Assembly: GCA_964586025.1 (NCBI GenBank)
Contig: CAZPGF010000001.1
Location: forward strand, 29,544 to 93,543
DNA length: 64,000 nt
Reading direction: 5' to 3'
From: an uncultured Planctomycetales bacterium
GTDB taxonomy: Bacteria > Planctomycetota > PLA2 > JAEUHO01
Made by a program: the position numbers and the translations under genes. The notes beneath the pieces were generated by a model. It was not told where the DNA came from and did no database searches. It saw nothing but the letters and a program-made list of their open reading frames with translations. Shown one piece after another: positions 26,838 to 64,000 of the stretch; position 1 is the stretch's first letter; each line of letters starts with the position of its first letter.

Positions 26838-28573
26838 TCGCGTCGCCGGCGACGCGCGTCGTCTCCCCGTCGACGATCTCGAACGTGACGCCCGTGACGG
26901 CTTCGTCCGACGGGTCCAACGCGAGGGTGCCGCGCCACGTCCCGGGGCGAAGCGCGAACGGAGCCTCCCAGCCCCGGCCCTGGGCACGTCGTTCGAGCGG
27001 GATCTCGACGTCCGTCTCATGGGGGCCGTCGGCCGCGTACACGCGCAACGTCCCGTCGCGTGGGTCGCCCGGTGCGAACGACTCGTCGATCGCGAGGCGC
27101 CCGCCCGGACGCGGTGTGAACGCCACGTTGCGCACCTCGTCGGCGACGACATCGACGTCCACGCATTCCCACGCCAGGTCACCGTCGCGAGGCAGCACGC
27201 GAACCGACCAGCGGCCGACCTCGAGCCCCCGCGCAACGAACGGCATGGGCGGCGTCCTCGGCAGCCACGTCGTGGATCGCGACCGCGCCCACGGACCGGC
27301 GGGTCCGTGGAGCACCACGGTGGCGCCGCGCGGCCATGCCCCCGTCAGGGAGACGCCGCCCGCCTCGACCGGCGACAGCGCCAGCGCCACCTCGGTCGGT
27401 CCGTTCGATGCGATCGGGCCGACCCGAGCGCGCGCGAACGCCGGGACGGACGGCGTCGTTCGATCCGGGCACGGCCACCTCGACGACGAGGTCGTCCCGC
27501 GCCGCGACGAGGGGCAGCGCGCCGTCGCCGGGAGCGATCCGCAGAGGTCCCGCCGCCCCGACGACCTCGCCCGCGGCGTCGAGGAGACGAACGCGCCACG
27601 GACGCGACGTGCCCGGCAGGTCGGGGTGGGTCAGGTGCAGCCAGGGACGCGCGACGAGTGCGTCGAACTCGGCGAGTCCTCCACCGCCGATCAGCAGCGC
27701 CGGGGGCGTCTCGAGGAACGGTGCTTCGAGGGTCAACTCGTACGGCAACGCGGCGGCCTCGCCGACGGCGAAGACCCCGCTCGCGTCCACGTCGACATGA
27801 CCCCAGACCGTGCGGGTGCCCCCGTCGCGGGACAGCTCGACGACCTGGACGCGGCCCACGCGCAGCGCGCTCGGCAAGGCCTCCGGCCAGTGGATCCGGC
27901 CGTGGATCGGATGCGAGGCCTCGGGTTCGATCTCGACGCGGCGGAGTTCGCCCGGCGCCGGTGCATCGACCACCAATCTCCGGCGCGCGACCGGCCGATC
28001 GCGCGAGAGGCTCGGCTCGGGCTCCACCACCACCGTCACCGTCCGAAGTCCGGGACGGATTCGGAACGCTGCGGCGACGCCGGCGCGGGCGACTCCCTGT
28101 CCGCCGATCGCCGCGATGCGCTGGAGCGGCTCATCCGTTTCGATGCTCGCCCGCGCCGGACCGAGCAGCGTCGTCTTGACGACGAGTTCGAGCACGCCAT
28201 GAGGCTCGAGCGTCGCGCGCGCGAGGAACCGATTCGCGTCGCCGCGTTCGATCGCCAACGCCCCGCCCGGGGGCAACTCGTACCACGGCGCGCGCACCTC
28301 GATCGCGTCGGCGATCGCCTGGGGCGAGTCCGGCGAGGCGTCCGCCGCGAGAGGAACCGGATGCACGCGAGCGCGTCCTTCGGCGTCCGCATCGACCCAG
28401 CCGCCGTCGACGAACCGAGCACGTGCCTGGGCGCGCGGCACCGGTCTCCCGCCGGCGTCCACGATCGTCACGAGCACGGAAAGACCCTCGGGGCCGCGCG
28501 CGCCCCGTGAGCCGAGCCATGCGCCCACGGCGGCGAGGAGCGCGATGGGCAACCACAGCACGACGCGGCGCAT
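26806..28573 (-). CDS. large secreted protein (signal peptide, beta-rich repeats); apparent +/-1 frameshift near 27425-27440
   Basis: ATG at 28573 (MRRVVLWLPIALLAAVGAWLG). Protein-like frame 28573->~27430 then degenerates into Arg-rich text. The adjacent frame (track ORF 26806..27390) continues protein-like text with the same style. The junction lies in a GCGCGCGC run. Confidence 0.45.
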
Positions 28574-40699: not shown

Positions 40700-40768
40700 A
40701 GGCGCCGATTCTCCTCACAACACGTCACGGGACCGTGACGCCGGGCGGGCGCATCGTACGCTGTCCCC

Positions 40769-40951
40769 ATGTCCGACGAAGCGACGCCCACTGCCCACGG
40801 ATCGGCATCCATCGGCTGGGGCCGCTGGGCGCTCGGGCTGTGGGTCGTCCTGATCGCGCTCGCCGCCGCGGGGGTACTCCTCGGCTGGGACGACCTGCGG
40901 CTGGCCCTCGACGTCGATCGCGAGATCCATCTCGCGAAGCCCGCTTCGTGA
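40769..40951 (+). CDS. very small hydrophobic ORF (questionable)
   Basis: 60 aa with a TM-like LGLWVVLIALAAAGVLLGW; no other support. Confidence 0.15.
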   Translation: MSDEATPTAHGSASIGWGRWALGLWVVLIALAAAGVLLGWDDLRLALDVDREIHLAKPAS

Positions 40952-40995
40952 CCCGTGGCGCTCCCTTCGCGTGGAGGGGTCGGAGGGTCGCGGCC

Positions 40996-41820
40996 ATGCG
41001 CGCGGCGAGCCATGCGGCGGCCTTGTTCGACTGGCTGTTCCCGCCACGTTGCGTCGCCTGCGCCGCTCTCGCCTGGGACGACCCGCACGTCGGCCTGTGC
41101 GCCCCCTGCGCCGAGGGGCTCGGCGAGAACGAGGCGCGCTGCCGTCGCTGCGGGCGGGTCCGACCTCGCGACGACGGGGGGCTCGGGTGCGAGCGGTGCA
41201 TCGGGCCGGACGCCGTGCCCGATGCGCTCGGGCGCCCCGACCTGTCCCGGACGTCCGGAGGCGAGGCCCTGCGCCGGGACGCGATCAGCGGGGTGGTGGC
41301 GACGTGGCGGTATCGGGGCACCGCGGGCGTTCTGGTGCGGCGCATGAAGTTCGCGCGACTGCCGGGGGCGGCCCGACCCCTGGTCGCGGGGATGGCCGCG
41401 GCGACGCGGCGTGCCGGGGTGCCCGGCGATCTGGTCGTTCCCCTGCCCCTGCACGCGACCCGCCGCCTCGCCCGCGGTTTCGACCAGGCCGCCCTGCTCG
41501 CGCGCGGCGTCGCGCGGGAACTCGACCTCGCCTGCCCCGCCTTCGGTCTGCGCCGCGTTCGCGCCACCGCGCCCCAGGCGATGCGCCGGGGGCGCACGCG
41601 CTCCCGTGGACTCGCGGGCAGCTTCGAGGCGGTGCCGGCGGTCGTGCGCGGCCGTTCGGTATTGCTCGTCGACGACGTGCTGACGACGGGCGCGACGGCA
41701 CGCGCGGCGGCACGTGCCCTGCGGCGCGCGGGCGCCGCCTCGGTCCATGTCGTCGTCGCGTGCCGCTCCGAGGCCCGCCATGCGTTGCGGACGACCCGCC
41801 GAAGGAGCCCATCGACGTGA
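40996..41820 (+). CDS. ComF-family protein (Zn-finger plus phosphoribosyltransferase domain)
   Basis: LFPPRCVAC...C zinc finger and PRTase motif VLLVDDVLTTGAT. Confidence 0.7.
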   Translation: MRAASHAAALFDWLFPPRCVACAALAWDDPHVGLCAPCAEGLGENEARCRRCGRVRPRDDGGLGCERCIGPDAVPDALGRPDLSRTSGGEALRRDAISGVVATWRYRGTAGVLVRRMKFARLPGAARPLVAGMAAATRRAGVPGDLVVPLPLHATRRLARGFDQAALLARGVARELDLACPAFGLRRVRATAPQAMRRGRTRSRGLAGSFEAVPAVVRGRSVLLVDDVLTTGATARAAARALRRAGAASVHVVVACRSEARHALRTTRRRSPST

Positions 41821-49172: not shown

Positions 49173-51116
49173 ATGACCACCGCCCGCGATGTACGCCGCG
49201 TGATCCTGGGCACGGCGGGTCACATCGACCACGGCAAGACGACCCTCGTCGAGAGGCTGACCGGAACACCGGGGGACCGCCTGCCCGAGGAGCGGGCGCG
49301 CGGCATGACGATCGATCTCGGCTATGCGGCGTTCCCGCTGGACGACGGGACCGAGATCGGCGTGCTCGACGTGCCGGGACACGAGCACTTCGTCCACACG
49401 ATGGTCGCGGGCGCCGCGGTGATGGATCTCGCCCTGCTCGTCGTCGCCGCCGACGACGGACCGATGCCCCAGACCCTCGAGCATGTCGAGATCCTGGATC
49501 TTCTCGGTGTGACCAGGCTCGTCGTCGCGCTGACGAAGATCGACCTCGTCGGCGCCGAGCGCGTCGCGGAGGTCGTCGCTGCCGTGCGCTCCCTGATCGA
49601 CACGACCGGGATGCGCGGCGCACCGATCGTGCCGGTCTCCGCGACGACCGGCGAGGGGATGGATGCCCTGCGGAGCGCGCTGCGCGCGGCGCTGCCGGAC
49701 GCCGCGGCGCGGGACGACGACGGCCGCGTCTTCCGGATGCCCTTGCTGCGCGCCTTCCACGTCGAGGGACGCGGCGTCGTCGTCACGGGCGTACCGGTCA
49801 GCGGCCGGATCCGCGTCGGCGATCGGGTCGAGGTCCTGCCCTCCGGCCTCGTGGCCCGCGTGCGGGCGATCCGCATCCACGGCTCGGACGCGGGGGAGGC
49901 GCGCGTCGGCCAGCGGACCGCGCTCGCGTTGAGCGACGTGGAGGTAGGCGACCTGAAGCGGGGGATGGTCGTCGCCGAGGCCGGACGGTTGCGCCCGGCC
50001 GCGCGGCTGATCGCGTCGGCGCGGGTACTCGCGACCGCGCGGCGCGGACTTCGACATCGCGACCGCGTGCGCCTCCACATCGGTGCCTCGCGCCTCGTCG
50101 CGCAGGTCCACCTCCCGGCACGCCATCCGCTCGAGCCCGGTTCGAGCGGGGTCGTCGAACTCGTCCCGGAAGGGCCGACGATCGCGCTGCCGGGCGATCG
50201 CTTCGTGCTCCGGGCGGAGAACGCCTCCGCGACGCTCGGCGGCGGCGTGGTGATCGATCTCTCGGAACGCGCCCTTCCCGCGCGGCGCGACGCGCTGCTC
50301 GAGCGACTGGCCGCCCGCGAGGTCGTGCCGCCGCGGTGCGAGCCGATCCTGCTCGGCGCCCTCGACGCGATCGGCGAGGAGGGGGGGGATCTCGACCTGC
50401 TCGTCGCGCGCACCGGGTTTCGACCGGACGTCGTGCGCGAGGCGGCGGCGTCCCTGGTCGCACGCGGCGCGTTGCGGTCGCTCGGGCGCGGGGATCGTTG
50501 GTGCGACGCCGGCTCGTTCGCCCGCGTCGTCGATCGGGTCGAAGAGGCTCTCCGTCGCCTGCACGCGCGCGACGACGCGATCGCGGCGTGGCCGCTCATG
50601 ACCCTTCGCGCCGCGCAACCGCGACTCGACGCGGATGGGTTCGACGCGGCGCTTGCGGACCTGGTCGCTCGCGGGCGGATCGTACGCACGGCGGAAGGGG
50701 ATCTCCATCACGTCGAGCACGTGGTCGAACTGCCCGCGCGCGAGAGGGCCCTGTGCGACGCCGTCTCCGCGCTGCTCGCGCGCGGCGCGGGCCGCCCTCC
50801 CGACGAGGACGAACTGTCCGGCGCGACGGGCGCGAGCCGCCCCGACGTCGAGCGGGCGTTGCGCCTGCTCGCGTCGCGACGACGCGCGTGGCGAACGGCG
50901 GAGCACTGGTTCGACGCGGACTGGGTGGAGACGGCGAAGGAGCGCCTCGCGGCGTTCGCCGCCGAGCACGGCGGATTCACGCCGGCGGACGCACGGACGC
51001 TGCTGGACACGACCCGCAAGTGGCTGATCCCGCTGCTCGAAGCCCTCGACAAGTCCGGCTGGTCGCGGCGACAGGGAGAGCGCCGGGTCGTGCGCGCCAA
51101 CGGTCCGGTGGCGTGA
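49173..51116 (+). CDS. selB: selenocysteine-specific elongation factor SelB
   Basis: GTPase G1 [10 protein letters not shown] and DVPGHEHF motifs, then a long winged-helix C-terminal extension typical of bacterial SelB. Confidence 0.8.
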
Positions 51117-51184: not shown

Positions 51185-52804
51185 ATGCCCTCCTCGACCG
51201 GAATCGCGGCCCTCGTTGCCCTGCTCGTGGCGTTCGGTTCGCCCCTTTTCGACGCCGGTCCGGTGGGGGCCGATGAGCCCGTTCCGGAGGGAGCGCCGGA
51301 GGGAGAACCGGTTCCTGGCGACGAGCCGAGCGCGGACGAACCCGCGCCCGAGGAACCTCCCGACGACGACCTGCCGGACGACCTGCCGCCCTTGCCCGCG
51401 CCGCCATCCGCGCCTCCTTCGCCGAGCGATCCCCCCGCGTCCGCCGCGGAGGAGCCGCGGGACGTCGCGCCGCCCCTCGCCGAGGACGTCGTCGTGCTGA
51501 CGAACGGTAGCGAGTGGCGCGGGCGGATCTGTCGCGAGACCGAGCGCGAGATCGAGATCGAAGCGGTCGGCCGCTCCGGCTCCGTGCAGCGCGTCTCGCT
51601 GCCGCGCGCGCGGATCGCGGAGGTCCGACGCGCCCCTCGCGACGGTGCCGAGCCCGTCCTCGGTGCGCGCGAGGAGTCCGAGGAGTGGTTCCTGCTGCAC
51701 GCCGAGGGACGCATCGTCGGCTGGCGTCGCGTGAGCGTGACGCGCGTGCGCTCGAGCCAGTTCAGCGGATGGCGACTCGAAGAGGAGATCCTCGAGTTCG
51801 CGCAGGGCCGGCACCTTCCGGAGACGCGAACGCGGCGTCTCGAGGTCATCGACGACGAGTTCGTGCCGCGCCTCATCGAGTACCGGGAGGCGAGCGAGGC
51901 GGAGGGAAGCCGCGGGTACGAGCGTCTCGTCAGCGGCGAGGTCGAGAACGGCGTCTGGCGACTGGTCGCCACCGGCGACGGCGAGACCCGCCGTCGGAAC
52001 GTGGACATCCCCCCGGGGGCGCGCGGCGCGCTGGCGTGGCGCGAGTGGATGCGCCGTGCGACGCCGCGCGCGATCGGGCTCTTCGACGCGCACCTCGTCG
52101 ATCCGGCCGCCGAGGGACTGACGCCGCTCCAGATCGGCTTCGTGTCGGCGGGCTCGACGGCGGAGTGGCATCGCGTCGTCGGCGGACGCCGGCTGGTCGG
52201 TCGGTTCGACGCGAAGGGCGAAGCGCCCTACGAGGAGATCGCCGAAGGGCTGATCGCGCGGCCGTCGACCTCACGTCGCTGTCTCGCTGCCGAAGCCGGC
52301 GAGACGATCGGCGCCGAGGAGCGTGCGGAGGTGGCCGCCGACCCGACACGCATCGTCCACGTCGCGGAGATCGGACTCGCGTTCGATCGACCCACCGAGT
52401 CATGGTCCTGGAAGGCGGACCTCGTGGACGCCAGCCGTACCGGGTGGCGCCGGATCGGCCTCCTCACCGAGAAGCGCCGCCTGATCGACGTGCGCGTCGA
52501 GTGGCACCCCGAAGGAGAGGGCGCTCCCGTTGAGGTGGCCGATCGCGCCGCCTGGCTCGTCACGCGTCTGCGGACACGCTGCCCCGATCTGGTCGAGTTG
52601 CCCGCCGGGCCCCCCCCGGTGATCCCCGGCGCGCAGCGGCTCGACTTCGTCGGCACGCTCCACGGCGAGCGATTGAGGACGATCGTGGTCTGGATCGCAC
52701 GTCCACGTGGGTTGATCGTGCTGATCGGCGCCGGCCCCGAGCGGTCCTGGGCGGAGGACAGCGCCGAATTGGAGCGCTTCCTTCAATCGGTGCGGCTGCT
52801 TTGA
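51185..52804 (+). CDS. secreted hypothetical protein with acidic Pro/Glu-rich linker
   Basis: MPSSTGIAALVALLVAFGSPLFDAG signal, then an acidic PEGAPEGEPVPGDEPSADEP low-complexity stretch and a 400-aa globular region. Confidence 0.5.
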   Translation: MPSSTGIAALVALLVAFGSPLFDAGPVGADEPVPEGAPEGEPVPGDEPSADEPAPEEPPDDDLPDDLPPLPAPPSAPPSPSDPPASAAEEPRDVAPPLAEDVVVLTNGSEWRGRICRETEREIEIEAVGRSGSVQRVSLPRARIAEVRRAPRDGAEPVLGAREESEEWFLLHAEGRIVGWRRVSVTRVRSSQFSGWRLEEEILEFAQGRHLPETRTRRLEVIDDEFVPRLIEYREASEAEGSRGYERLVSGEVENGVWRLVATGDGETRRRNVDIPPGARGALAWREWMRRATPRAIGLFDAHLVDPAAEGLTPLQIGFVSAGSTAEWHRVVGGRRLVGRFDAKGEAPYEEIAEGLIARPSTSRRCLAAEAGETIGAEERAEVAADPTRIVHVAEIGLAFDRPTESWSWKADLVDASRTGWRRIGLLTEKRRLIDVRVEWHPEGEGAPVEVADRAAWLVTRLRTRCPDLVELPAGPPPVIPGAQRLDFVGTLHGERLRTIVVWIARPRGLIVLIGAGPERSWAEDSAELERFLQSVRLL

Positions 52805-52880: not shown

Positions 52881-54179
52881 GTGTCGAACAGTCAGGACGT
52901 CGATCTCGCCAAGCGACTGATGAAGGCCGGGCTCGTGACCGCCGACTCGCTGCGCGAGGCGTTCGCCCTGCAGGCGCGCGTCCGCGAGGAACGCGGCGCG
53001 GCCCCGGCGCTCCATCGCGTCATCTACCACCTCGGCCTGCTGCCCGCCGGAAGTCTCGACCTGGCGGTCGGCCCGGGACCCCTGGTGACCCAGCCGTTGC
53101 GCGGCTACCGCCTCGAACGAGTCATCGGGGAAGGCGGGACGAGCCTCGTCTACGGGGGCGTGTACCTCGAGAACCAAGCGCCGGTCGCGGTGAAGGTGCT
53201 CGACCCGGTCCTCTCGCTGAAGGAGGGTTGGGTCGAACGGTTCCGCCTCGAAGGGCGCATCCTCATCGAGGTCGAACATCCGAACATCGTGTTCGGCTAC
53301 GAGGTGGGGTCGGTCGACGGGTGGCACTTCGTCTCGATGGAGCGGATCGACGGCGTCACGGCCGAGGACGTCGTCAACCGACGCGGTCGGCTCGAGTCCG
53401 GCGAGGCGCTTTGGGTCGTCCTCCAGATGGCTCGGGCGCTCGGCGCGTTGCACGCGGCCGGTTACCTCCATCGCGACGTGAAGCCGAACAACGTGATGCT
53501 CCAGGCCAACGGTCGCGCGGTGATGATCGACATGGGCTTCACCCAGATCATCGATCCGACGGTCGGCGAGGAGACGCCGCTCTCGGCGGTCACGGTCGGA
53601 ACGGTGGAGTACCTCTCGCCCGAGCAGGCGCGAGGTCGTGCCGACCTCGATCCTCGCGCCGACATCTACAGCCTCGGCGTGTCGCTCTACCACCTGGTCG
53701 TCGGCGAGGTCCCGTTCCGCGGCGCGAGCCAGGAGGAAGTGCTCGCCATGCAGGTGCTCGGGTCGATCGACGTGCAGAAGCTGAAGCAGCGCCACATCAC
53801 GCCCGAGGTGCAGTTCTTCATCGCGAAGATGATGTCGAAGGATCGCGCGCGCCGCTACGAGACGATGGCCGAGGTCGTGCGCGAACTCGAGGGCTACGTC
53901 CCCGCCTCGGGGACGTCGATCGATCTCGGTCCCGAGCCCTCCGCCCCGGTCACCGCGCCGCCGCTCCACCCGGTCGCTCCGCCCATCGCCGGCCGCCCGA
54001 CGAAACTCGCCCCGACGCCTTCCCCGAAACCGGCCCCGACGTCCGCCCCCAAGCCCGCTCCGAAGTCCATGCCGAAGTCGACTCAACGCCCCTCCCCCAA
54101 GGCCTCGCCGACGCGCGGCGACGCGCCGGTTCCGCGCCGCCGCCGCGATGAGGGCGATCCGCCTCGCCGGCGCCGATGA
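52881..54179 (+). CDS. Ser/Thr protein kinase with Pro/Lys-rich C-terminal tail
   Basis: GEGGTSLVYGG, VAVK, HRDVKPNNVML, DMGF and YLSPEQ motifs. GTG 52881 chosen; the track ORF starts at 52836. Confidence 0.8.
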   Translation: MSNSQDVDLAKRLMKAGLVTADSLREAFALQARVREERGAAPALHRVIYHLGLLPAGSLDLAVGPGPLVTQPLRGYRLERVIGEGGTSLVYGGVYLENQAPVAVKVLDPVLSLKEGWVERFRLEGRILIEVEHPNIVFGYEVGSVDGWHFVSMERIDGVTAEDVVNRRGRLESGEALWVVLQMARALGALHAAGYLHRDVKPNNVMLQANGRAVMIDMGFTQIIDPTVGEETPLSAVTVGTVEYLSPEQARGRADLDPRADIYSLGVSLYHLVVGEVPFRGASQEEVLAMQVLGSIDVQKLKQRHITPEVQFFIAKMMSKDRARRYETMAEVVRELEGYVPASGTSIDLGPEPSAPVTAPPLHPVAPPIAGRPTKLAPTPSPKPAPTSAPKPAPKSMPKSTQRPSPKASPTRGDAPVPRRRRDEGDPPRRRR

Positions 54180-55141
54180 ACGTTCCCGCCGAGTCCGGCT
54201 CGAACGACTCGTCCGCGCCGTGGTACGCGGAGGGGCTGCGGTTCCGCTGCACCGCGTGCGGCGCGTGCTGCACGGGCGAGCCCGGACACGTCTGGGTGGA
54301 TGACGACGAGATCCGGCGCCTCGCGCGAGCGCGAGGGCTCTCCGCCCGCGCGTTCCGGGCGCGGTTCGTACGGCGCGTCGGCAAGCGTTGGTCGTTGAAG
54401 GAGAAGGAGAACGGGGACTGCGTGTTGCTCGAAGGCGGTCGTTGCACGGTGTACGAGCACAAGCCGACCCGATGCACGACGTTTCCGTTCTGGCCCCCGG
54501 TGCTCGCCTCGCCGTCCGCCTGGGAGGAGGCGGGCGAGCGATGCGAGGGGATCGGCCAGGGCGATCTCTACGATCGCGAGGCCATCGAGCAACTCGCCGC
54601 GGGCGATCCACGCCCGCTCGTGGAGCGGCATGCCCGCCCGCCCGATCGGCCGGTGCGGAGCCGACATGATGGGTCCGACGAGTCCGCGCGCGTTCCGGAC
54701 GACGCCGGCGACGACGTCGATTGGCCCGCCGCCTTCGCCGCGCTCGAACGGCTCTACGACGACCTCGATCGCGAGCTGCCGCGCACCGGAATGACCTGTG
54801 CCGCGAGTGGGCGCTGTTGCGACTTCGACGCGTACGGTCATCGGCTCTACGTGACGACGCTCGAGGCGATGTGGTTCTTCACCTGCCTCGACGGGCGTCG
54901 CAACGACGACGCCCGTGCTTGTCCGGCGTGGGGCGCCGATCGACTCTGTCACGAGCGACGCGGTCGCATGCTCGGTTGCCGGACCTACTTCTGCGGTCCC
55001 TACGTGGGCATGACGCCGGAGGACGTGCATCCGCGCTACCACGACCGCCTGAAGGCGCTGCACGATCGATTCGGCATCCCGTACGCCTACAGGGACGTCC
55101 GCGCCTGGGCCGCCGAGATGCGCCCGGCAGCGGGGGAGTGA
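54176..55141 (+). CDS. YkgJ-family (CxxCxxCC) putative Fe-S/zinc-cluster protein, duplicated module
   Basis: CTACGACCTGEPGHVWV...CTVYEHKPTRCTTFPFWP repeated as CAASGRCCDFDAYG...CRTYFCGP. ATG overlaps the kinase stop (ATGA). Confidence 0.6.
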   Translation: MNVPAESGSNDSSAPWYAEGLRFRCTACGACCTGEPGHVWVDDDEIRRLARARGLSARAFRARFVRRVGKRWSLKEKENGDCVLLEGGRCTVYEHKPTRCTTFPFWPPVLASPSAWEEAGERCEGIGQGDLYDREAIEQLAAGDPRPLVERHARPPDRPVRSRHDGSDESARVPDDAGDDVDWPAAFAALERLYDDLDRELPRTGMTCAASGRCCDFDAYGHRLYVTTLEAMWFFTCLDGRRNDDARACPAWGADRLCHERRGRMLGCRTYFCGPYVGMTPEDVHPRYHDRLKALHDRFGIPYAYRDVRAWAAEMRPAAGE

Positions 55142-55299
55142 CGGCGAGTTCGGGAGCGGCGCGGCGCGCGGGTCGGCGCTCGGACCGTGCGGCACGGCGG
55201 CGATCGCCACCGCCTCCGGCGGGGAACTCCACGCAGGGGGCGGTGTCCAACCGGGGCGCCGGACGAACCGTCCCCGCCCGCCCGGCTCGGAGGCATCCC

Positions 55300-57579
55300 A
55301 TGTCGCTCCCTCGTTCCTTCGGTCAGCGCTTTGGACCCGCGCTCGTCGCGTTGCTCGCCGCGTTCGCGGCGGTCGCGTGGGCGGCGCCCGCCCGGGCGAA
55401 CGGCATCCTGACCGTCGATCGCACCGACGTCGTGACGCCGCCCACGGGCCGGCGGCCGACCCATCCGTGGCGCCACCCGTCGGTCACGCTCAAGGACCAC
55501 CGGGTGTCGGCCCGTCTGAAGGATCGCGTCGCGGAGGTCACCGTCGAGCAGGTGTTCCGCAATCACACCGATCGGCAGTTGGAAGGCACCTACCTGTTCC
55601 CGCTGCCCGACGGCGCGAGCGTCAGCCGTTGGGCCATGACGATGGGCGGCAAGATGGTCGAGGGCGAGATCCTCGAGGCCGCCAAGGCGCGCGCGATCTA
55701 CGAGAGCATCGTCCGCGCGCGGCGGGATCCCGGCTTGCTCGAGTACATGGGGCGCGGGCTCTTCCAGGCGCGTGTGTTTCCGATCGAGCCGCGCGCGGAT
55801 CTCACGATCCGCCTCACCTTTCAGCAACTCCTGCCCGAAGACGGCGGCACGATCGAGTTCCGCTACCCGCTGAGCACGGATCGGATGAACGCGACCCCGG
55901 TCGACGGCGTGACGATCGACGTGACGATCCAGAGCGACGTGGACATCAAGGCGATCTACAGCCCGTCGCACGCGGTGGACGTGACACGCCGAGGGGACCG
56001 CGAGGCGCGCGTCGGCTACGAGCGCCATGGGCAGCGCCAGGACAAGGACTTCGTGCTCTACGTCGGGCGCAGCGAGTCCGACGTCGGCTTCTCGATGCAG
56101 AGTCACAAGGCGCCCGGCGAGGACGGCACGTTCCTGATGGTCCTCGCGCCGCGGACCGAGGTGAAGGCCGAGGAGGTCGTCGCGCGCGACGTCGTCTTCG
56201 TGCTCGACACGAGCGGATCGATGGCCGGCCCGAAGATGCGGCAGGCGCAGGACGCCCTCACCTACGGCATCCGCACGCTGGGGCCGAAGGACCGGTTCAA
56301 CGTCATCGGCTTCGCGACGGGGCTCCGTCCGTTCCGCGACGCGCTGCACGATGCGACCGACGAGATGAAGGAGGCCGCCGTGCGCTGGGTCGGAGCGCTG
56401 GCGCCCGCCGGCGGGACGAACATCCACGATGCCCTGCTCGCCGCGCTGGCGATGCGCGGCGACGAGCGCCTGTTCGTCGTCGTGTTCGTCACCGACGGGC
56501 GCCCGACCGTCGAGGAGCGCGATCCGGACCGCATCGTCGAGAAGGTGAAGGCGGTCAACTCGAACAACACGCGGGTGTTCACATTCGGCGTGCTCGGCGA
56601 CGAGCGTGCGGACGTGGACGTGCGCCTGCTCGACCGCATCGCCGAGGTCACCCGCGCGTCCCGTGACTACGTCCACGTCGGCGAGGAGATCGAGGTCGTC
56701 ACGAGCCGCTTCTTCCGCAAGGTCCAGCAACCCGTCCTGACCGATGTCACCCTCGAACTCGGCGAGGGCGTGAAGGACGTGTTTCCGCGCACGCTGCCCG
56801 ATCTCTTCGCGGGTTCGCAGATCGATGTGATGGGGCGCTACGCGACCGGCGGCGAGCGGACCATCCGTCTGCGAGGCAAGGTCGGCACGCGGGAGGTCGT
56901 CCACGAGTTCCGAGCCAACTTCCGGCAGGCGGAGGACGCGGGGTACCTGCCGCGCCTCTGGGCACAGCGGAAGATCGGGTACCTGCTGGATCAGATCCGA
57001 TTGCACGGCGCGGCGAACGAACTCATCGACGAGATCGTCCGACTCGCGACGCGCTACGCGATCGTCACGCCCTACACGTCGGGGCTCGTCGTGGAGGAGG
57101 GCGAACTCGGACGGATGCCGGCCGCCCGTGGCGAGATGCTCCGCGATCTCGCCGAGCGGCGAGGCTTCGACACGGATCGCAGCGGCGGCGCCCCGGGTGC
57201 TCCCCCGAGCGCCGCGCGCGACGCGGCCGACAGCGCGGTGATCGAGAGCCTGAAGGGGGCCACCGCCGAGGACGCGCCGGCCGACGCGGGAGCGGCCTAC
57301 GGTCGGGGCCGACTCGATGCGGAGCGAGCGAAGGACATGCGCGAGGCGGCCGCGTCGGTGCGCCGCGTCGATGATCGCATCTTCCGCCGCGATGCGGAGA
57401 ATCGGTGGGTCGATGCCGCATGGCGTTCCGACGCCACGCCCACATCGATCGAAGCGTTCTCCGAAGCGTACTTCGAGCTTCTGACCCGTCATCCCGCGCT
57501 GGCGCGGGTGTTCGCGCTCGGCGACGCCGTGCGCTTCATGCTGGACGGTCGCGCCTACGAGATTCGCCCCGCCCCGTAG
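55300..57579 (+). CDS. secreted VIT-domain plus von Willebrand factor A domain protein
   Basis: Signal MSLPRSFGQRFGPALVALLAAFAAVAWAAPARA. VIT-like N-terminus, then vWA with MIDAS DTSGSM...GGTN...TDG. GGAGG RBS. Confidence 0.75.
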   Translation: MSLPRSFGQRFGPALVALLAAFAAVAWAAPARANGILTVDRTDVVTPPTGRRPTHPWRHPSVTLKDHRVSARLKDRVAEVTVEQVFRNHTDRQLEGTYLFPLPDGASVSRWAMTMGGKMVEGEILEAAKARAIYESIVRARRDPGLLEYMGRGLFQARVFPIEPRADLTIRLTFQQLLPEDGGTIEFRYPLSTDRMNATPVDGVTIDVTIQSDVDIKAIYSPSHAVDVTRRGDREARVGYERHGQRQDKDFVLYVGRSESDVGFSMQSHKAPGEDGTFLMVLAPRTEVKAEEVVARDVVFVLDTSGSMAGPKMRQAQDALTYGIRTLGPKDRFNVIGFATGLRPFRDALHDATDEMKEAAVRWVGALAPAGGTNIHDALLAALAMRGDERLFVVVFVTDGRPTVEERDPDRIVEKVKAVNSNNTRVFTFGVLGDERADVDVRLLDRIAEVTRASRDYVHVGEEIEVVTSRFFRKVQQPVLTDVTLELGEGVKDVFPRTLPDLFAGSQIDVMGRYATGGERTIRLRGKVGTREVVHEFRANFRQAEDAGYLPRLWAQRKIGYLLDQIRLHGAANELIDEIVRLATRYAIVTPYTSGLVVEEGELGRMPAARGEMLRDLAERRGFDTDRSGGAPGAPPSAARDAADSAVIESLKGATAEDAPADAGAAYGRGRLDAERAKDMREAAASVRRVDDRIFRRDAENRWVDAAWRSDATPTSIEAFSEAYFELLTRHPALARVFALGDAVRFMLDGRAYEIRPAP

Positions 57580-57726
57580 CGCGGTCGGCGGCGCGTGCTC
57601 TCCGGCGGATTCGCCGGAGCGCCCGCCGTCCCGTAGGCTGCGGATGCGATGCGAATCGACCGACCGCCGTCACGCCGCCGCCGGGGTCGACTCGTTCGAC
57701 TCCCGGGCCGCGGGTGGGTGTTCGGC

Positions 57727-58800
57727 ATGGTCGTGGTCGTGCTCGCCGCAGGGTCCGTCGGCGCCGACGAACTCGCCCGCGAGGCGCACCTCTTGGAGCG
57801 GGGATCGGTGTCCCTCCGACGCGCCGCGGTGGCGCGGCTCGAGGCGTGGCCGGCCGGCCCCGAGGGGGCGCGCGCCGACCGCCTGTTGGGCCGCGCCCTC
57901 GACGACGGCGATCCCGTCGTTCGCGCGGCGGCGGCCGCGGCGCTCGCGAGCCGCGGGGCGCGGGGCCTCGCCGACGCGATCCGTGTTCGGGTCGGCGCCG
58001 AGAACGACGCCGGCGCGCTCGCGTCGGCGATCCACGCACTCGGCCGGCTCGGCCTCGCGATCGATGGGCCGCGGATCAACCCGCACGTGCTGCATCGCGA
58101 TCCGACGGTGCGCCGTGCGGCCATCCTCGCGCTCGGCGATCTCGACGCCGACGGCGCGAGGGAGGTCGCGCTCCGCATGCTCGACGATCCGCGCGGAGAC
58201 GATCCGGGTGAAGGCGTGCGCTCCGCCGCCGCGATCGTGCTCGGCCGTCGTGGCCGCGAGGACGACGGCTCGTCGCTCGTGAAGCGACTGGTCGATCACA
58301 CCGTCGATCCGCCTCCCGGCTGGCTCTTGCGCAGCGCGCTTGCGGAAGCGATCGGCCGCCTCGGTGGCGAAGGGTCGGTGGACCTGCTGCGTCGCCTCCT
58401 GCACGATCCCGATGCCCGTGTCGCCGTCACCGCGGCGACGGGTCTGGCGGCGCGAGGCGCGCGGAACACGCTGCTCGGCGCGCTCGGTGCGCCGGAGCCG
58501 GCCGTGCGCGCCGCGGCGGTGGGGGGTGTGGTGCAGGGGCGGGTGACCGACGGCTACCCGGTCCTTCGCGCCCTCGCGAGGCGCGATCCGAGTCGCGACG
58601 TGCGGTGGGCTGCGACCGAGGCGCTCTGGCGGCTCGAGGAGCGCGAGGCCGACCGCTGGGTCCTGGACGGACTCGCGGCGTCAGATCCCGGCGTCGTGCT
58701 CGCGTCGCATCGCCTCCTCGTCGAGCGGCTGCGCGTCGATCATCGCCTCGACCGCGCGGCGTGGACGAGCGAACTCGAGCACTGGTGGCGGCGACGGTGA
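57727..58800 (+). CDS. HEAT-repeat (PBS-lyase-like) protein
   Basis: Repeated DPxVRxAAxxALGxxG units. An alternative ATG lies at 57649. Confidence 0.6.
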   Translation: MVVVVLAAGSVGADELAREAHLLERGSVSLRRAAVARLEAWPAGPEGARADRLLGRALDDGDPVVRAAAAAALASRGARGLADAIRVRVGAENDAGALASAIHALGRLGLAIDGPRINPHVLHRDPTVRRAAILALGDLDADGAREVALRMLDDPRGDDPGEGVRSAAAIVLGRRGREDDGSSLVKRLVDHTVDPPPGWLLRSALAEAIGRLGGEGSVDLLRRLLHDPDARVAVTAATGLAARGARNTLLGALGAPEPAVRAAAVGGVVQGRVTDGYPVLRALARRDPSRDVRWAATEALWRLEEREADRWVLDGLAASDPGVVLASHRLLVERLRVDHRLDRAAWTSELEHWWRRR

Positions 58801-59699
58801 CCTATCCGCGCACCGCGCGCGCGCTCGCCGACGCGCTGCACGCCGCGTCGCTCGCGCCGAATCGCCGCCTCGGACAGTGTTTCCTGACCGATGCCCAGGC
58901 CGTGGACGCGATCGTCCGCGACGCCGGGGTGACGGCCGCCGATCGCGTCGTCGAGGTCGGCACCGGTCCGGGCCTCCTCACGTTCGCCCTCGCCGAGACG
59001 GGTGCCGAGGTGGTCACGTTCGACGTCGATGCGCGCCTTCAGCGCTTTGCGCGATCGCTCACCGACTGGCCGGAGCGGGTCACCTTCGTCGAAGGGGACG
59101 TGCTGTGCGGCAAGCACGACTTCGCTCCGACCTTCGCGGCGGCCCTCGACGCCCCGGCGGGTGCCGGTGGGCAGCGGCTGCTCGTCAGCAACCTGCCGTA
59201 CCACGTCGCGACGCCGATCCTGCTCGGCGCACTGGCTCGGGCGGAACCGCTGGAACGCATCGTCGTGATGGTGCAGCGCGAGGTCGCGGAGAAGCTGCTG
59301 GCGCCCGTCGGCGACCCCGAACGCGGCGCATCCACCGTGCTCGTCGACGTCGCGGCGACCGGCCGCATTCTCCGGCGCTTCCCCCCGGACGTGTTCCGCC
59401 CGCGCCCGCGCGTCGAGTCCGCGTTGCTGCGTCTCGATCCGCGCCGGCCGTCGCCCTATCGCCCGGGCGAGGCGGGTCCCTTCGGACGGTTCGTCACGGC
59501 CCTGTTCACGCGGCGTCGCAAGGTGCTGCGGCAGGCCGTTGCGCACGCCCTCGACGTTCCGGTCGCGGACGCCGCGGTGCATCTCGAGGCGGTCGGGCTC
59601 GATCCCGCGGGACGGCCGCAGGAGGCGTCCGCCCACGCGCTGCTTGCGCTGCTGCGCCGCGCCGGGTCCGGCGGGTCTCACGGGGCTCCCGGGGAGTAG
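58797..59699 (+). CDS. rsmA: 16S rRNA (adenine1518/1519-N6)-dimethyltransferase RsmA/KsgA
   Basis: GQCFLTD, VVEVGTGPGLLT and VSNLPYHVATPIL motifs. GTG overlaps the upstream stop. Confidence 0.85.
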   Translation: MTYPRTARALADALHAASLAPNRRLGQCFLTDAQAVDAIVRDAGVTAADRVVEVGTGPGLLTFALAETGAEVVTFDVDARLQRFARSLTDWPERVTFVEGDVLCGKHDFAPTFAAALDAPAGAGGQRLLVSNLPYHVATPILLGALARAEPLERIVVMVQREVAEKLLAPVGDPERGASTVLVDVAATGRILRRFPPDVFRPRPRVESALLRLDPRRPSPYRPGEAGPFGRFVTALFTRRRKVLRQAVAHALDVPVADAAVHLEAVGLDPAGRPQEASAHALLALLRRAGSGGSHGAPGE

Positions 59700-59738
59700 G
59701 ATCCCGCGCCGCCGCAGCGGCGGCTCCGGAGACGCGCG

Positions 59739-61739
59739 TTGGCGGCGATTCCCGACGAGATCATCCAGCGCGTCCGCGACGCGCACGACATCGTCGACGT
59801 CGTCGGTCGCACGCTCGAACTGAAGCGCTCGGGCGCTGCGTGGAAAGCGTGCTGTCCCTTCCACGAGGAGAAGACGCCGTCGTTCCAGGTCAATCAGCGC
59901 CTGCAGATCTTCAAGTGCTTCGGCTGCGGCAAGGGCGGCAACGTGTTCCATTGGCTGATGGAGACGCGCGGTCTCACCTTCCCCGAAGCGGTCCGTCAAC
60001 TCGCCGACGAACGCTCGATCGCGGTCCCGCTCGCGCGCGGGGCGGACCCGGGCGTGTCGCGCGACGCGCGCGCCCGACTCGGCGCCGCACTCGACGCCGC
60101 CCACGGCTGGTTTCGTGCGGCGCTCGCCGCCCCGGTCGGAGCCGAGGCGCGCGCGTACCTCGAGCGGCGCGGCTACGACGCGGCGCGGTGCGCCGAGTTC
60201 GGCCTCGGCTTCGCGCCGCCGACTTGGGACGGGCTCGTGCAGGCGCTCGGGCGACGCGGACTCGCCGGAGCCACGCTGGAGGACGCCGGACTCGCGCGAC
60301 GCCGCGAGCGGGGCGGCTTCTACGACGCCTTCCGCCACCGGGTGATGTTCCCGATCCGCGACGCGCAGGGACGACTGGTCACGTTCGCGGGCCGCACGCT
60401 CGATCCCAACGAGAACGCGAAGTACGTGAACGGCCCCGAGACGGCGCTCTTCCGCAAGTCGCACGTGCTCTACGCGCTCGATCGCGCCGCACCGGGAATC
60501 CGACGTCGCGGCGAAGCCCTCGTCATGGAGGGCTACACCGACGTGCTGATGACGCACGCGCACGGCTTCGACCACGCCGTCGCGGCCATGGGCACGGCCT
60601 TCACCGACGCGCAGGCGCGGCTTCTCGGCCGCTTTGCCGACCGCGCGGTGCTGCTGTACGACGGCGACGCCGCCGGTCAGGCGGCCGCCGAGCGGACGCT
60701 CGACGTGCTGCTGCCGATCGGACTGGACGTGCGGATCGCCGTGCTGCCCGCCGGTCGCGACGTGGACGAGATCCTGCTCGAAGAGGGGCCGGGCGCGCTC
60801 GAGGCGATCCTCGCCAACGCTCGCGACTGGTTCGCGCACCGGCTCGCGCGCGAGCGCGAGCGCCACGACCTCTCGACCGTCCGCGGGCGAAGCGCAGCCG
60901 CCGAGTCGTTGCTCGCGACGATCGTCCGGGTCAAGAGCGAGATCGAGCGGACGCTGCGCGTGAAGGAACTCGCCGAGTCGCTCGGCGGCGACCTCGGAGG
61001 CGTCGATGCCGAGGCGGTGCTCCGGCGCGTCGCGGGGGCGTCGCTCGCCCGTCGCGCCGGGGCGTCCGGGGCGTCCGGGGCGTCCGGGGCGTCCGGTCCG
61101 GCGCCGATCCGACGCCGCTCGGCCGCGGCCGTCGACCTCGCCCGGGAGTCCCAGATCGGCTACCTGGCGGGGGCGTTCGCCGACCCCCTGCTCGCCGACG
61201 CGATCCTCCGCTCCGTCGGGCCGGAGGAGTTCCCCAGTCCCGTCCTTCGCCGGATGTACGAGGGGATCCTCGACCTCGCCGAGTCCGGGCGACCCCTGCT
61301 CCGCGAGACCCTCGCGGCCCGGCTCGTCGAGGATGCCGAGGCGCTGGCCGAGTTGGCATCCCTCCCGGACGATCCAACCCTGGCCGAGCGGGTACGTTGC
61401 CAGATTGCGTTCCTGGAGCAGCGGCGGCTCGCCGAGGAGCGCAAGGAACGCCTTCGCGCCCAGGTGCGGGCCGCCGCCGCGGGCCTCGTCACGTCGGCCT
61501 CCGAGGTTCCGCCCGAAGCGGCCCGCCCGGCGGCAGCGAGGGCCGATCCGGGGCAGACTCCCAGCGGGGGCCCCGGTCCGGCGGGGGCGCGGTCGGGCGT
61601 GCCGCCGGTGAGGCCCGAGGGCGAAATCGAGGAATTCCCTTGCGACGAGATCGATCCTTTGCTCGGCCTCCCGGTCTTCGACGGCCCCCCGCCCGAGGAC
61701 CTCGACGACTCCGGCGAGGGCGCGACCCACTCCGGTTGA
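59739..61739 (+). CDS. dnaG: DNA primase
   Basis: Zn ribbon CPFHEEKTPSF...CFGCGKGG and TOPRIM EGYTDV...DGD motifs. Start is the track TTG (MAAIPDEI). Confidence 0.85.
   Translation: MAAIPDEIIQRVRDAHDIVDVVGRTLELKRSGAAWKACCPFHEEKTPSFQVNQRLQIFKCFGCGKGGNVFHWLMETRGLTFPEAVRQLADERSIAVPLARGADPGVSRDARARLGAALDAAHGWFRAALAAPVGAEARAYLERRGYDAARCAEFGLGFAPPTWDGLVQALGRRGLAGATLEDAGLARRRERGGFYDAFRHRVMFPIRDAQGRLVTFAGRTLDPNENAKYVNGPETALFRKSHVLYALDRAAPGIRRRGEALVMEGYTDVLMTHAHGFDHAVAAMGTAFTDAQARLLGRFADRAVLLYDGDAAGQAAAERTLDVLLPIGLDVRIAVLPAGRDVDEILLEEGPGALEAILANARDWFAHRLARERERHDLSTVRGRSAAAESLLATIVRVKSEIERTLRVKELAESLGGDLGGVDAEAVLRRVAGASLARRAGASGASGASGASGPAPIRRRSAAAVDLARESQIGYLAGAFADPLLADAILRSVGPEEFPSPVLRRMYEGILDLAESGRPLLRETLAARLVEDAEALAELASLPDDPTLAERVRCQIAFLEQRRLAEERKERLRAQVRAAAAGLVTSASEVPPEAARPAAARADPGQTPSGGPGPAGARSGVPPVRPEGEIEEFPCDEIDPLLGLPVFDGPPPEDLDDSGEGATHSG
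61059..61094 (+). repeat. 9-nt tandem repeat (GGGGCGTCC)x4 encoding (Gly-Ala-Ser)4 in the dnaG linker
   Basis: Direct perfect tandem copies seen in sequence, in-frame. Confidence 0.6.
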
Positions 61740-61794
61740 AGCAAGGCACGGGCGTCTCGCCGCGCCATGATGCGGCGCCTCGGGAGCACGACGC

Positions 61795-63513
61795 ATGACG
61801 CGACGAGTGGATCCGTTCGTTCCGCCCAGCCCGCTCGACGAGACCGAGCCCGAGATCCTCGCGCTGATCGAAACGGGAAAGAAGCGCGGCTACCTCACCT
61901 ACGAGGAACTGAACACCGCCGAGCCGGAGAAGGCGCCCTGCCCGGCGATGATGGACCGGATCCTCCAGACGATCGATCTCGCTCAGATCGAGGTTCTCGA
62001 CGGCGGCGACGCGGCCAAGCGCGAGCGCGAGGCGGCGATCGCGCGCGGCGAGACCCCGCCCGTCGAGCCGCCGACTCCGGGCCGCCGGGTTTCGAGGGCC
62101 TCGTCCACGGAGAGCGTGCTCGACCAGCCGATCTCGACGGAGAAGATCGACGATCCCGTCCGCATGTACCTCACGCAGATGGGCGAGATCCCGCTCCTCA
62201 CCCGCGACGAGGAGATCAGCCTCTCGAAGAAGATCGAGATCACCCGCAAGCGTTATCGCCACGCCGTCCTGGAGAGCGGCGCGGGCATCGCCGCGGCGAT
62301 CGGCATCCTTCAACAGGTCGCACGCGGGGACATCGCGTTCGATCGCACGCTGCGGATCGGTACCGCCGACCCGGTGGACAAAGATGATCTCCAGCGGCGC
62401 ATGCCGTTCAATCTGCGCACGATGGAGAAGATCCTCGCCGACCTGCGCGAGGACATGGCGACGCTCGTCTTCGGCAATCCGAGTGAGCGCACCGCCGACC
62501 ACCTTCGCACCCGCGTCCGTACGCGCCGCCTCCGCTGCCTGAAGCTGATGGAGGAGATCGCGATCCAGACGAAGAAGATCCGCCCGATCCACGAGGAGTG
62601 CTACGAGCGCGCCGAAGAGATCGATGACCTTCGGCGCCGCATCCGCGATCTCAAGCGCCGCAAGGGCGAGCAGATCGAGATCGACGAGTGCGAGGAGCGC
62701 CTCAAGGACATCGAGGTGGAGGTCCTCGAGTCGCCCGACGCGTTCGTGAAGCGCTGCGCGGAGATCCGCCATCGATTCGCGGAGTACGAGGAGGCCAAGC
62801 GCAAGCTGTCCAGCGGCAACCTGCGGCTCGTCGTGTCGATCGCGAAGAAGTACCGCAACCGCGGCCTGACTTTCCTCGATCTGATCCAGGAGGGCAACAC
62901 CGGGCTGATGAAGGCGGTCGAGAAGTACGAGTACCGCCGCGGCTACAAGTTCAGCACGTACGCGACGTGGTGGATCCGACAGGCCATCACGCGTTCGATC
63001 GCCGATCAGGCGCGCACCATCCGCATCCCAGTGCACATGATCGAGACGATGAGCAAGATCCGCAACGTCACCAAGAAGCTGATCCAGCGCCTCGGACGCG
63101 AACCCACCACCGAGGAGATCGCGCAGGCGAGCGGCATCAGCGTCGAAGAGACGAAGCGGGTGATGAAGATCAGCAAACACCCGATCAGCCTCGATCGCCC
63201 GATCGGGGACAGCGAAGACAGCTACTTCGGCGACTTCATCGAGGACGAACAGGCCGAGAGCCCCGTCAACGCCGCGACCCACGAGATGCTGAAGGACAAG
63301 ATCGACCAGGTCCTTCAGACGCTGACGTTCCGCGAGCGCGAGATCATCAAGTTGCGCTACGGCATCGGCGACGGCTACACGTACACCCTCGAAGAGGTCG
63401 GCAAGATCTTCAAGGTCACGCGCGAACGCGTTCGCCAGATCGAGGCGAAGGCGGTGCGCAAGTTGCAGCACCCGGTGCGAGCCCGCAAACTCGAAGGATT
63501 CCTCGACCAATGA
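61795..63513 (+). CDS. rpoD: RNA polymerase sigma-70 factor RpoD
   Basis: Regions 1.2 through 4 present, including [19 protein letters not shown] and [19 protein letters not shown]. Confidence 0.9.
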
Positions 63514-63559
63514 GCGCCGCGGCGAGCGAGACATCGGACCCCGAGGAGCGCTCCCGTTC

Positions 63560-64000
63560 ATGATGCCCACGACCGACGACCTGATCCAGCGGCTCCTCTC
63601 CCTCAGTGCGCTCGACGCAAGGATTCGCGACCTGAACGAGCGGTTGGAGAAGGCGCCGGCCGCGGTGGCGGAGCGGGAGGCCGCCGCCAAGGCGCTCGAG
63701 GAGAAGGCGGCGCAGGTGCGCGCGAAGCTGCTGCAGCTCCGCGCGCAACGACGCCTTCGCGATGCCGAGGTGAGGGGACTCGACGCGAAGTTGACCAAGT
63801 TGAAGGCCCAGTCGGGGTCCGTGCGATCGAACAAGGAGTTCGTTGCGTTCCGCAGCGAGCTGGCGAACGCCCAAGCCGAGTCCGATCGTCTGCAGGGCGA
63901 GATCCTGAAGATGATCGAGGTCGAGGAGCAGGCCGACGCGCGGATCCGGCAGTTGGACGAGCAGCGCGACGCGGAGCGGGCTCGCGCGGAGGCGTTGCGC
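63560..64000 (+). CDS. COG1579-like zinc-ribbon/coiled-coil protein (partial, runs off window end)
   Basis: MMPTTDDLIQRLLSLSALDARIRDLNERLEKAPAAVAE...KEFVAFRSELANAQAE coiled coil. Confidence 0.4.
   Translation, partial: MMPTTDDLIQRLLSLSALDARIRDLNERLEKAPAAVAEREAAAKALEEKAAQVRAKLLQLRAQRRLRDAEVRGLDAKLTKLKAQSGSVRSNKEFVAFRSELANAQAESDRLQGEILKMIEVEEQADARIRQLDEQRDAERARAEALR

Follow-up and report, generated by a model that had tools for sequence, protein, structure and literature searches.

Hanks-type Ser/Thr kinase and double-YkgJ cysteine-cluster protein: a conserved gene pair of uncultured Planctomycetota

The kinase-YkgJ2 pair and its gene block

A 64,000-nucleotide stretch of DNA from an uncultured Planctomycetales bacterium (contig CAZPGF010000001.1, positions 29,544 to 93,543; "the window" in what follows is this whole stretch) contains a block of co-directional genes that includes a gene for a Hanks-type Ser/Thr kinase and, directly after it, a gene for a protein with two YkgJ-type cysteine domains, here called YkgJ2. 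The kinase stop and the YkgJ2 start overlap in the tetranucleotide ATGA (54176-54179). These two genes constitute a module that is conserved in several uncultured Planctomycetota lineages. The pairing is associated with the fused form of the YkgJ protein: a kinase gene lies directly upstream at 13 of the 16 scorable loci with a fused YkgJ2 and at none of the 107 loci with split or N-half-only YkgJ genes. The pair is retained in no fewer than four gene arrangements, and in the window clade and one sister arrangement it travels together with genes for a VIT-vWA protein, a HEAT-repeat protein and a PsbP-fold protein. An earlier annotation of the window, made from the sequence alone (the first-pass annotation), had let its suggestion of a kinase-YkgJ coupling hang on the recurrence of the pair outside this genome, and had named no characterisation of the combination known to it. 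The pair does recur, and no published description of a conserved kinase-YkgJ combination or of a two-YkgJ fusion was found in the searchable literature. The component proteins are all from known families; what appears to be new is the coupling of a soluble kinase to a dedicated, putatively metal-binding cysteine partner.

The genes of the block (Table 1) were called from third-position GC content (GC3), in a window that is ~71% G+C throughout, and from synteny with a relative of 80% identity (L001; the L numbers are loci of relatives). The gene order, five domain identities and both stop/start overlaps of the first-pass annotation are borne out by Pfam, by NCBIfam and by reading of the sequence. 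It overlooked the hyp539 gene, which is the sixth conserved gene and part of the block. The second overlap, of the HEAT stop with the rsmA start, is GTGA at 58797-58800. The kinase gene starts with GTG, with GGAG upstream, in agreement with the N-termini of its orthologues; the start of the VIT-vWA gene was placed at 55300 as a correction.

Table 1. Genes of the block and its flanks in the window
Gene or product	Coordinates	Strand	Size or basis
selB	49173-51116	+	GC3 and synteny with L001
hyp539, exported PsbP-fold protein	51185-52804	+	539 aa
Hanks-type Ser/Thr kinase	52881-54179	+	Pkinase 6e-40
Double-YkgJ protein (YkgJ2)	54176-55141	+	PF03692 in N half
Secreted VIT-vWA protein	55300-57579	+	VIT 1e-28 and VWA
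HEAT-repeat protein, N-terminal signal peptide or anchor	57649-58800	+	HEAT_2 1e-26
rsmA/ksgA, 16S rRNA dimethyltransferase	58797-59699	+	TIGR00755
dnaG, rpoD, CT398-like gene	3' of rsmA	+	co-directional series

Hydropathy analysis finds a single N-terminal hydrophobic segment in each of hyp539, the VIT-vWA protein and the HEAT protein and none in the kinase, YkgJ2 or RsmA. Thus, three of the products of the block are exported or anchored, and the rest are cytoplasmic. A terminator scan detected no intrinsic-terminator-like site on the + strand in 48.5-64 kb, which is counted in favor of the reading of the pair that is developed below; a promoter scan and Rfam yielded nothing in 48-64 kb.

The double-YkgJ protein

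The N half of YkgJ2 is a bona fide member of the single-domain YkgJ family (UPF0153/COG0727 "Fe-S-cluster containing protein", PF03692), with all eight of its cysteines and a Pfam score of 43.6 bits (cut-off 23), the match being confined to residues 25-119. YkgJ2 departs from the single-domain proteins in having a degenerate paralogue joined to this half, and in its coupling to a kinase. The second cysteine domain (residues 176-321) has no Pfam match even at E<=1. When the two halves are compared with hhalign they match at E=2.5e-5 and a probability of 75%, with their cysteines in register. This makes the C half a duplicate that has diverged, its first motif having degenerated to Cx5CC (C208-x5-C214-C215), instead of CxxCxxCC. 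The first-pass description of a duplicated CxxCxxCC protein is thus correct as to the two paralogous halves and wrong as to the motif of the second, which, moreover, is encoded by a separate gene in most relatives. All 15 cysteines are invariant in an alignment of 91 full-length homologues: eight in the N half (C25, C28, C31, C32, C82, C90, C100 and C123) and seven in the C half (C208, C214, C215, C249, C258, C268 and C273). The AlphaFold2 (AF2) model has a predicted local distance difference test score (pLDDT) of 90.8 but a predicted template modeling score (pTM) of only 0.60; the variable linker that joins the two halves is poorly predicted (residues ~160-180). Neither a sequence search nor Foldseek of the model found a relative of YkgJ2 in the PDB.

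A survey of fused and split genes, with one genome per species and the reading frames checked, establishes the fused protein as a minority form: most Planctomycetota have an N-type gene (~140-150 aa) followed by a separate C-type gene. The split arrangement accounts for 28 scorable loci, including those of Phycisphaerae, Brocadia, Isosphaeraceae and Pirellulales metagenome-assembled genomes (MAGs), and the N-type gene alone was seen at 79 further scorable loci. The split N-type and C-type paralogues probably form a heterodimer. Compared with single-domain proteins of Planctomycetota, Chlamydiota and Myxococcota, the N half of YkgJ2 (residues ~15-135) shows 45-54% identity; with the proteins of L054, L068, L073, L078 and L085 (Myxococcota, Thermoanaerobaculia and Chlamydiota MAGs), its N-type domain shares 47-54% identity, an unusually strong conservation for a protein annotated without a function. 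In one subgroup of split pairs (L017, L037, L044, L045, L051, L052, L057 and L062) an HU-family DNA-binding gene lies 3' of the pair. A 421-aa protein (P0347), the single long match when family representatives were searched for fusions, has a Metallophos (calcineurin-like phosphoesterase) domain fused to an N-type YkgJ domain; together with the PP2C (SpoIIE) gene that directly follows YkgJ2 in L005, this fusion hints at a link between YkgJ domains and phospho-signaling.

In the literature searchable, FliB is the only characterized protein with a YkgJ-type motif and the sole YkgJ family member of known function. The CX4CX3CC motif of FliB of Salmonella binds a [4Fe-4S] cluster, sensitive to oxygen, which is needed for methylation of flagellin by S-adenosylmethionine (SAM) prior to export (PMC8598068). 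The likeness to YkgJ2 lies in a PF03692-type Cys-rich N-terminal motif with eight conserved cysteines and in a cytoplasmic location, where FliB acts on a protein that is exported later. The differences are that the motif of YkgJ2 is CX2CX2CC and that FliB has its motif in single copy within a longer protein, has no kinase partner and belongs to a flagellar context, whereas this block has no flagellar genes. Membership of YkgJ2 in the FliB-type flagellin lysine methyltransferases was considered and dismissed on three counts: motif spacing, gene context and the NCBIfam models. The related motif of FliB, taken with the invariance of all 15 cysteines, suggests by analogy that YkgJ2 carries Fe-S or Zn centers.

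The kinase

The kinase (PF00069, 137.7 bits against a Pfam gathering score of 31.7) is composed of a conserved N-terminal domain of ~65 aa, the catalytic domain and a Pro-rich tail that ends in poly-Arg, and it is of the soluble type. Invariant among 27 members of its family are GEGGxSxVY, K105, E124, H197-R198-D199, N204, D217-x-G219 and S246-P247-E248, along with two activation-loop threonines (T238 and T241); the DFG position reads DMG or DLG. The N-domain and the intact catalytic motifs are found also in the kinases of L050, L118, L127 and L172, as is the tail (53970-54179 in the window), which is predicted to be disordered and is capped by a terminal PRRRR. The L005 kinase retains both N-domain and poly-Arg tail; that of L006 aligns from its N-terminus and is without the poly-Arg end. 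In the window, YkgJ2 has an acidic linker.

The N-domain (52881-53100) is helical and conserved, with two tandem helix motifs LxxxLLxxGLLxxxxLxxxLxxQ, and has no match in Pfam. Its profile aligns weakly, and in register, with the MshEN-type (MshEN/T2SSE_N) cyclic di-GMP-binding domains of MshE, PilB and PilF (E 1e-4 to 0.07; PDB entries 6f8l, E=1e-4; 5htl, E=0.013; 8pdk, E=0.05). Where what we take to be the cyclic di-GMP-binding motif has its leading Arg and Gly, the N-domain has Asp/Glu and Ala; these replacements and the missing Pfam match make nucleotide binding by the N-domain doubtful.

The kinase also matches the PADLOC models for the PD-T4-6 and mad6 kinases, with E values down to 2e-68, and the locus might on that account be read as an anti-phage defense system assembled around a PD-T4-6-like kinase. 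The PADLOC kinase models, however, extend over no more than the generic catalytic domain of Hanks kinases; the other four proteins have no PADLOC match, save for a weak HEAT-ARM repeat match; and the locus, which lies among housekeeping genes, is conserved vertically and shows no anomaly of composition. We regard a defense function as very improbable and set it aside as not supported.

Conservation of the pair

The presence of a kinase at YkgJ loci was scored by tblastn with the catalytic domain. The contrast between fused (13/16) and split or N-only loci (0/107) corresponds to a Fisher p of 5e-15, a calculation that ignores kinship among the loci. The surroundings of the pair fall into several contexts. 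Context A, with the order hyp539-kinase-YkgJ2-VIT/vWA-HEAT-rsmA, is that of the window, of L001-L004 and of L007, and extends down to 53% YkgJ2 identity; tblastn finds the same order in L008 and, within the extent of the fetched sequence, the portion from hyp539 through VIT/vWA in L009. In context B (L005 and L006; 37-38% YkgJ2 identity) the VIT-vWA gene is gone and the order is kinase-YkgJ2-(PP2C)-rsmA with the 4-nt overlap kept; genes for a histidine kinase and a PP2C phosphatase are inserted, and the HEAT and hyp539 genes are upstream, the latter ~2.5 kb from the kinase with one gene between. In context C (L050, L097, L118, L127 and L172) kinase and YkgJ2 are followed by a TPR/Peptidase_MA_2-like + strand gene; just two of these loci, L118 and L127, also have a divergent ClpX/HslU-like gene before the pair. 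Context E (L088 and L091), which was found starting from kinase homologues, has the split form: the kinase gene, with a hyp539 homologue beside it, is divergent from an operon of overlapping genes, TPR-YkgJN-YkgJC-VIT/vWA-HEAT. Kinases from all four contexts have the N-domain, intact catalytic motifs and a poly-Arg end in common, the missing poly-Arg of L006 excepted. In L127, genes for an RNA methyltransferase of the RsmE type and for a protein with an FHA domain lie 2.5-3.4 kb downstream of the pair (L127:10339-13280), possibly by coincidence.

The VIT-vWA, HEAT, PP2C, histidine kinase and TPR genes thus vary, and the 4-nt overlap of kinase and YkgJ2 lasts to 35-38% YkgJ2 identity. Apart from the window, it is present in L004, L005, L006, L007 and L172; in L001 and L003 the genes are separated by 43 nt and 5 nt, respectively. 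The association was also approached from the kinase side: of the 41 kinase orthologues whose contigs measure 3.5 kb or more, 24 lie on a contig equal in size to that of a listed YkgJ2 homologue. Close matches among species representatives are all Planctomycetota MAGs, and every named relative is planctomycetal; the phyla proposed for comparison in the first-pass annotation, Myxococcota and Gemmatimonadota, are not supported. Metagenome contigs provided, among the matches listed, only distant relatives (<=37% full-length identity), which served as background.

YkgJ proteins with and without a linked kinase differ consistently in a single alignment column, that of residue 270, which lies between the candidate ligands C268 and C273. 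All of the 13 kinase-linked fused proteins have the signature CR[T/S]YFC in their C half, as do the C-type proteins encoded by the split genes of L088 and L091; residue 270 is Val or Ile in nearly all of the unlinked proteins and Thr in 3 of 37. The signature CRTYFC predicted kinase linkage for the protein P0119, whose contig (L172) begins with the 3' end of a kinase gene of this family in 4-nt overlap with YkgJ2.

That the pair is held together by nothing more than the stability of one lineage's chromosome has to be weighed against these results. According to this explanation there is no functional coupling, the genes belong to a fixed chromosomal backbone of one Planctomycetota lineage, and the overlaps reflect compact packing next to rsmA, dnaG and rpoD. 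Synteny does reach beyond the block, to genes for an AsmA-like protein, recJ, selB, rsmA, dnaG, rpoD and the CT398-like gene, and few lineages hold the linked loci. rsmA is known to occur in mixed operons, which counts on the same side. On the other hand, the pair is kept amid otherwise unrelated neighbors in contexts B, C and E, and the contrast between fused and unfused loci likewise speaks against a merely stable backbone. Since the surroundings change around the pair, pure synteny inertia is unlikely, and we consider the absence of any functional coupling to be quite improbable.

A proposed cytoplasmic complex of kinase and cysteine-cluster protein

The reading of the pair that we favor, with a probability of roughly 0.45, is that the kinase and a metal-cluster protein, YkgJ2, form a complex in the cytoplasm that bears a loose resemblance to PknG and in which YkgJ2 regulates the kinase or is its substrate. 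The genomic context suggests that the two proteins would be made together and act as a complex. YkgJ2, with its 15 cysteines, would carry one or two Fe-S (or Zn) centers and would serve as a redox- or iron-responsive regulatory partner of the kinase or, alternatively, as its dedicated substrate; in the window clade, the pair would be tied to the exported PsbP-fold, VIT-vWA and HEAT proteins.

PknG is regulated via rubredoxin. PknG of Mycobacterium and Corynebacterium (PMC6069109, PMC8546545) is likewise a Hanks kinase that is soluble and has no transmembrane segment; it combines a Cys-ligated metal module with a helical-repeat scaffold, and its gene lies beside that of an exported ligand-binding protein (GlnH). 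In PknG, however, the kinase is fused to its TPR module and to a rubredoxin with 4 Cys in two CxxCG motifs, whereas here there is a separate YkgJ-type protein with 15 cysteines, a HEAT protein that is apparently exported, and no GlnX-like membrane relay. The kinase of the window is not itself of the PknG type, as it has only the ~65-aa N-terminal helical domain and a disordered tail.

A more elaborate proposal would make the pair a two-subunit counterpart of PknG and its rubredoxin, that is, an Fe-S-gated Hanks kinase. Either the state of the cluster, as set by O2, redox, nitric oxide or iron supply, would switch the kinase, or phosphorylation by the kinase of the Thr in CRT270YFC, between two putative cluster ligands, would control assembly of the cluster; in the window clade, the output would be tied to exported envelope proteins. 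That this proposal is correct seems to us unlikely.

Several facts weigh against the favored reading. The linked loci represent only about four lineages or contexts, so that the statistics overstate their independence, and the wider synteny (recJ, selB, rsmA, dnaG, rpoD) marks the chromosomal region as generally stable. The two genes also occur apart. L089 has hyp539-kinase-HEAT-rsmA with neither YkgJ nor VIT; in L090 (1422-5600) a kinase orthologue of 56% identity is followed by the gene for a 1392-aa TIR/TPR protein and not by YkgJ2; and L010, L011 and L092 have a fused YkgJ2 and no kinase. Kinase-less split YkgJ pairs are widespread, which indicates that the Cys-cluster proteins have an autonomous function. 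No kinase-YkgJ fusion was found among the best 150 of 3,774 family representatives, and it is gene context that points to a physical interaction of the two proteins. The centers might contain Zn instead of Fe-S. Finally, T102, at the position homologous to residue 270 in the N half, is near-invariant across the whole YkgJ family, and T270 may therefore be an ancestral state or subfamily marker and not a phospho-site; for this reason, a firm assignment of T270 as a phosphorylation site was rejected.

Planctomycetota encode very many Hanks kinases. To our knowledge, almost none of these has a known input or partner. The pair offers a testable handle both on what YkgJ proteins bind and do and on the signal input of a soluble kinase that lacks a sensor domain. 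If the cluster protein gates the kinase, an Fe-S/redox branch would be added to bacterial Ser/Thr signaling; if YkgJ2 is only a substrate, the two would still make up a dedicated kinase-substrate pair. The carriers are all uncultured MAGs or metagenome contigs, and such tests consequently call for heterologous expression.

The exported neighbors

The most constant neighbor of the kinase is hyp539, the gene for which adjoins the kinase gene not only in contexts A and E but in L089 and L090 as well. The protein has no Pfam match; it is predicted to consist of a signal peptide, an acidic Pro-rich linker, a beta-rich middle domain and a C-terminal PsbP/DcrB/LpqN-like domain. Its AF2 model is of moderate quality (pLDDT 77.9) because the homologue search gave just 7 sequences. 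With this model, Foldseek against the PDB retrieves PsbP (2xb3, E=7e-4, TMt 0.67), DUF1849 (6ntr, to the beta domain), DcrB and LpqN.

The VIT-vWA protein (PF08487, 100 bits; VWA_3, VWA and VWA_2, including PF13768 and PF00092) has a signal-peptide-like N-terminus, an intact metal ion-dependent adhesion site (MIDAS) with DxSxS at residue 303 (VLDTSGSM; GGTNI and VTDGRPT were read from the translation) and a C-terminal stretch of ~300 aa with no assigned domain. Its likeness to the ITIH-like secreted VIT-vWA proteins resides in the VIT plus vWA (MIDAS) architecture and the secretion signal. A marine sortase target (TIGR03788) was ruled out: the score is 304 bits against 551.65, and no sorting motif is evident at the C-terminus, which ends in AYEIRPAP. 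The orthologues of contexts A and E extend over the full length of the protein (44% identity in L088, 40% in L091). The gene is tandemly duplicated downstream of YkgJ2 in L009 (6505-10667).

The placement of this gene is what gives weight to the main rival to a kinase/YkgJ2 complex. In that alternative, YkgJ2, or the corresponding split pair, would be an Fe-S enzyme that modifies an exported neighbor, most plausibly the VIT-vWA protein, before its export, much as FliB with its cluster-bound, PF03692-like motif methylates flagellin in the cytosol before secretion (PMC8598068), and the kinase would regulate or simply accompany it. In the window clade, VIT-vWA always comes after YkgJ2; the stop of YkgJ-C and the start of VIT-vWA overlap in L088 and L091, with the HEAT gene next; the order in L169 is TPR-YkgJ-VIT; and contexts A and E are what a FliB-like enzyme with this substrate would lead one to expect. 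Contexts B and C, in contrast, retain kinase and YkgJ2 with no VIT-vWA gene within the fetched flanks, and VIT-vWA is not near most of the split YkgJ pairs. YkgJ2 has no recognizable SAM-binding or other catalytic domain, its Cys spacing is not that of FliB, and there is no NCBIfam match to a curated FliB model. On balance, an enzyme of this kind is an unlikely explanation.

The first-pass annotation had seen in the vWA and kinase genes part of a dispersed vWA/FHA/Hanks-kinase signaling triad. A vWA protein and a Hanks kinase are indeed encoded in one co-directional block, PP2C follows YkgJ2 in L005, and an FHA gene lies ~3.4 kb off in L127. Operons of vWA, Ser/Thr kinase (STK), FHA and PP2C genes do exist, for example DRA0331-0334 of D. 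radiodurans, with vWA and Hanks kinase clustered as they are here (bioRxiv 10.64898/2026.01.23.701218). The comparison fails in other respects. No FHA, PP2C, further kinase or further vWA was found in ~35 other window ORFs (a non-exhaustive list compiled by a GC3 heuristic); contexts B and C are without vWA; and the vWA of the window is a VIT-vWA with a signal peptide, whereas that of the known operons of this type is cytoplasmic. An extracytoplasmic vWA protein would, after export, be out of reach of a cytoplasmic kinase. A module of this kind, with or without PP2C, is very improbable and is rejected as not supported.

The HEAT protein (PF13646, HEAT_2, 93.4 bits in 4 stretches) has an N-terminus rich in Arg and, after it, a single hydrophobic segment, either a signal peptide or an anchor; orthologues are present in L001-L008, L088, L089 and L091. 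Assignment as a bilin lyase was rejected, the CpcE and NblB equivalogs scoring far below their cut-offs.

The end of the block and other features of the window

The 3' boundary of the block is rsmA (184.2 bits against the TIGR00755 cut-off of 171 in NCBIfam), and it remains so where YkgJ2 and VIT-vWA are missing (kinase-HEAT-rsmA in L089). The order rsmA-dnaG-rpoD-CT398-like is kept across the clade (58797-64000 in the window; L001, L003 and L006). In two relatives (L004:18914-21062 and L007:15731-18368) a second kinase (~695 aa) and an extracytoplasmic function (ECF) sigma factor are encoded between rsmA and dnaG.

Elsewhere in the window, three large ORFs have no Pfam match: two of them, 16287-21203 (+, 1638 aa) and 38633-40714 (-, 693 aa), have a strongly coding-like GC3 of 0.86-0.87, and the third, 26663-28510 (+, 615 aa), has a weaker GC3 of 0.80. 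The segment at 40.7-42.9 kb is 75% G+C, and its sole ORF, at 40567-41820, encodes a ComF-like phosphoribosyltransferase/double-zinc-ribbon protein.

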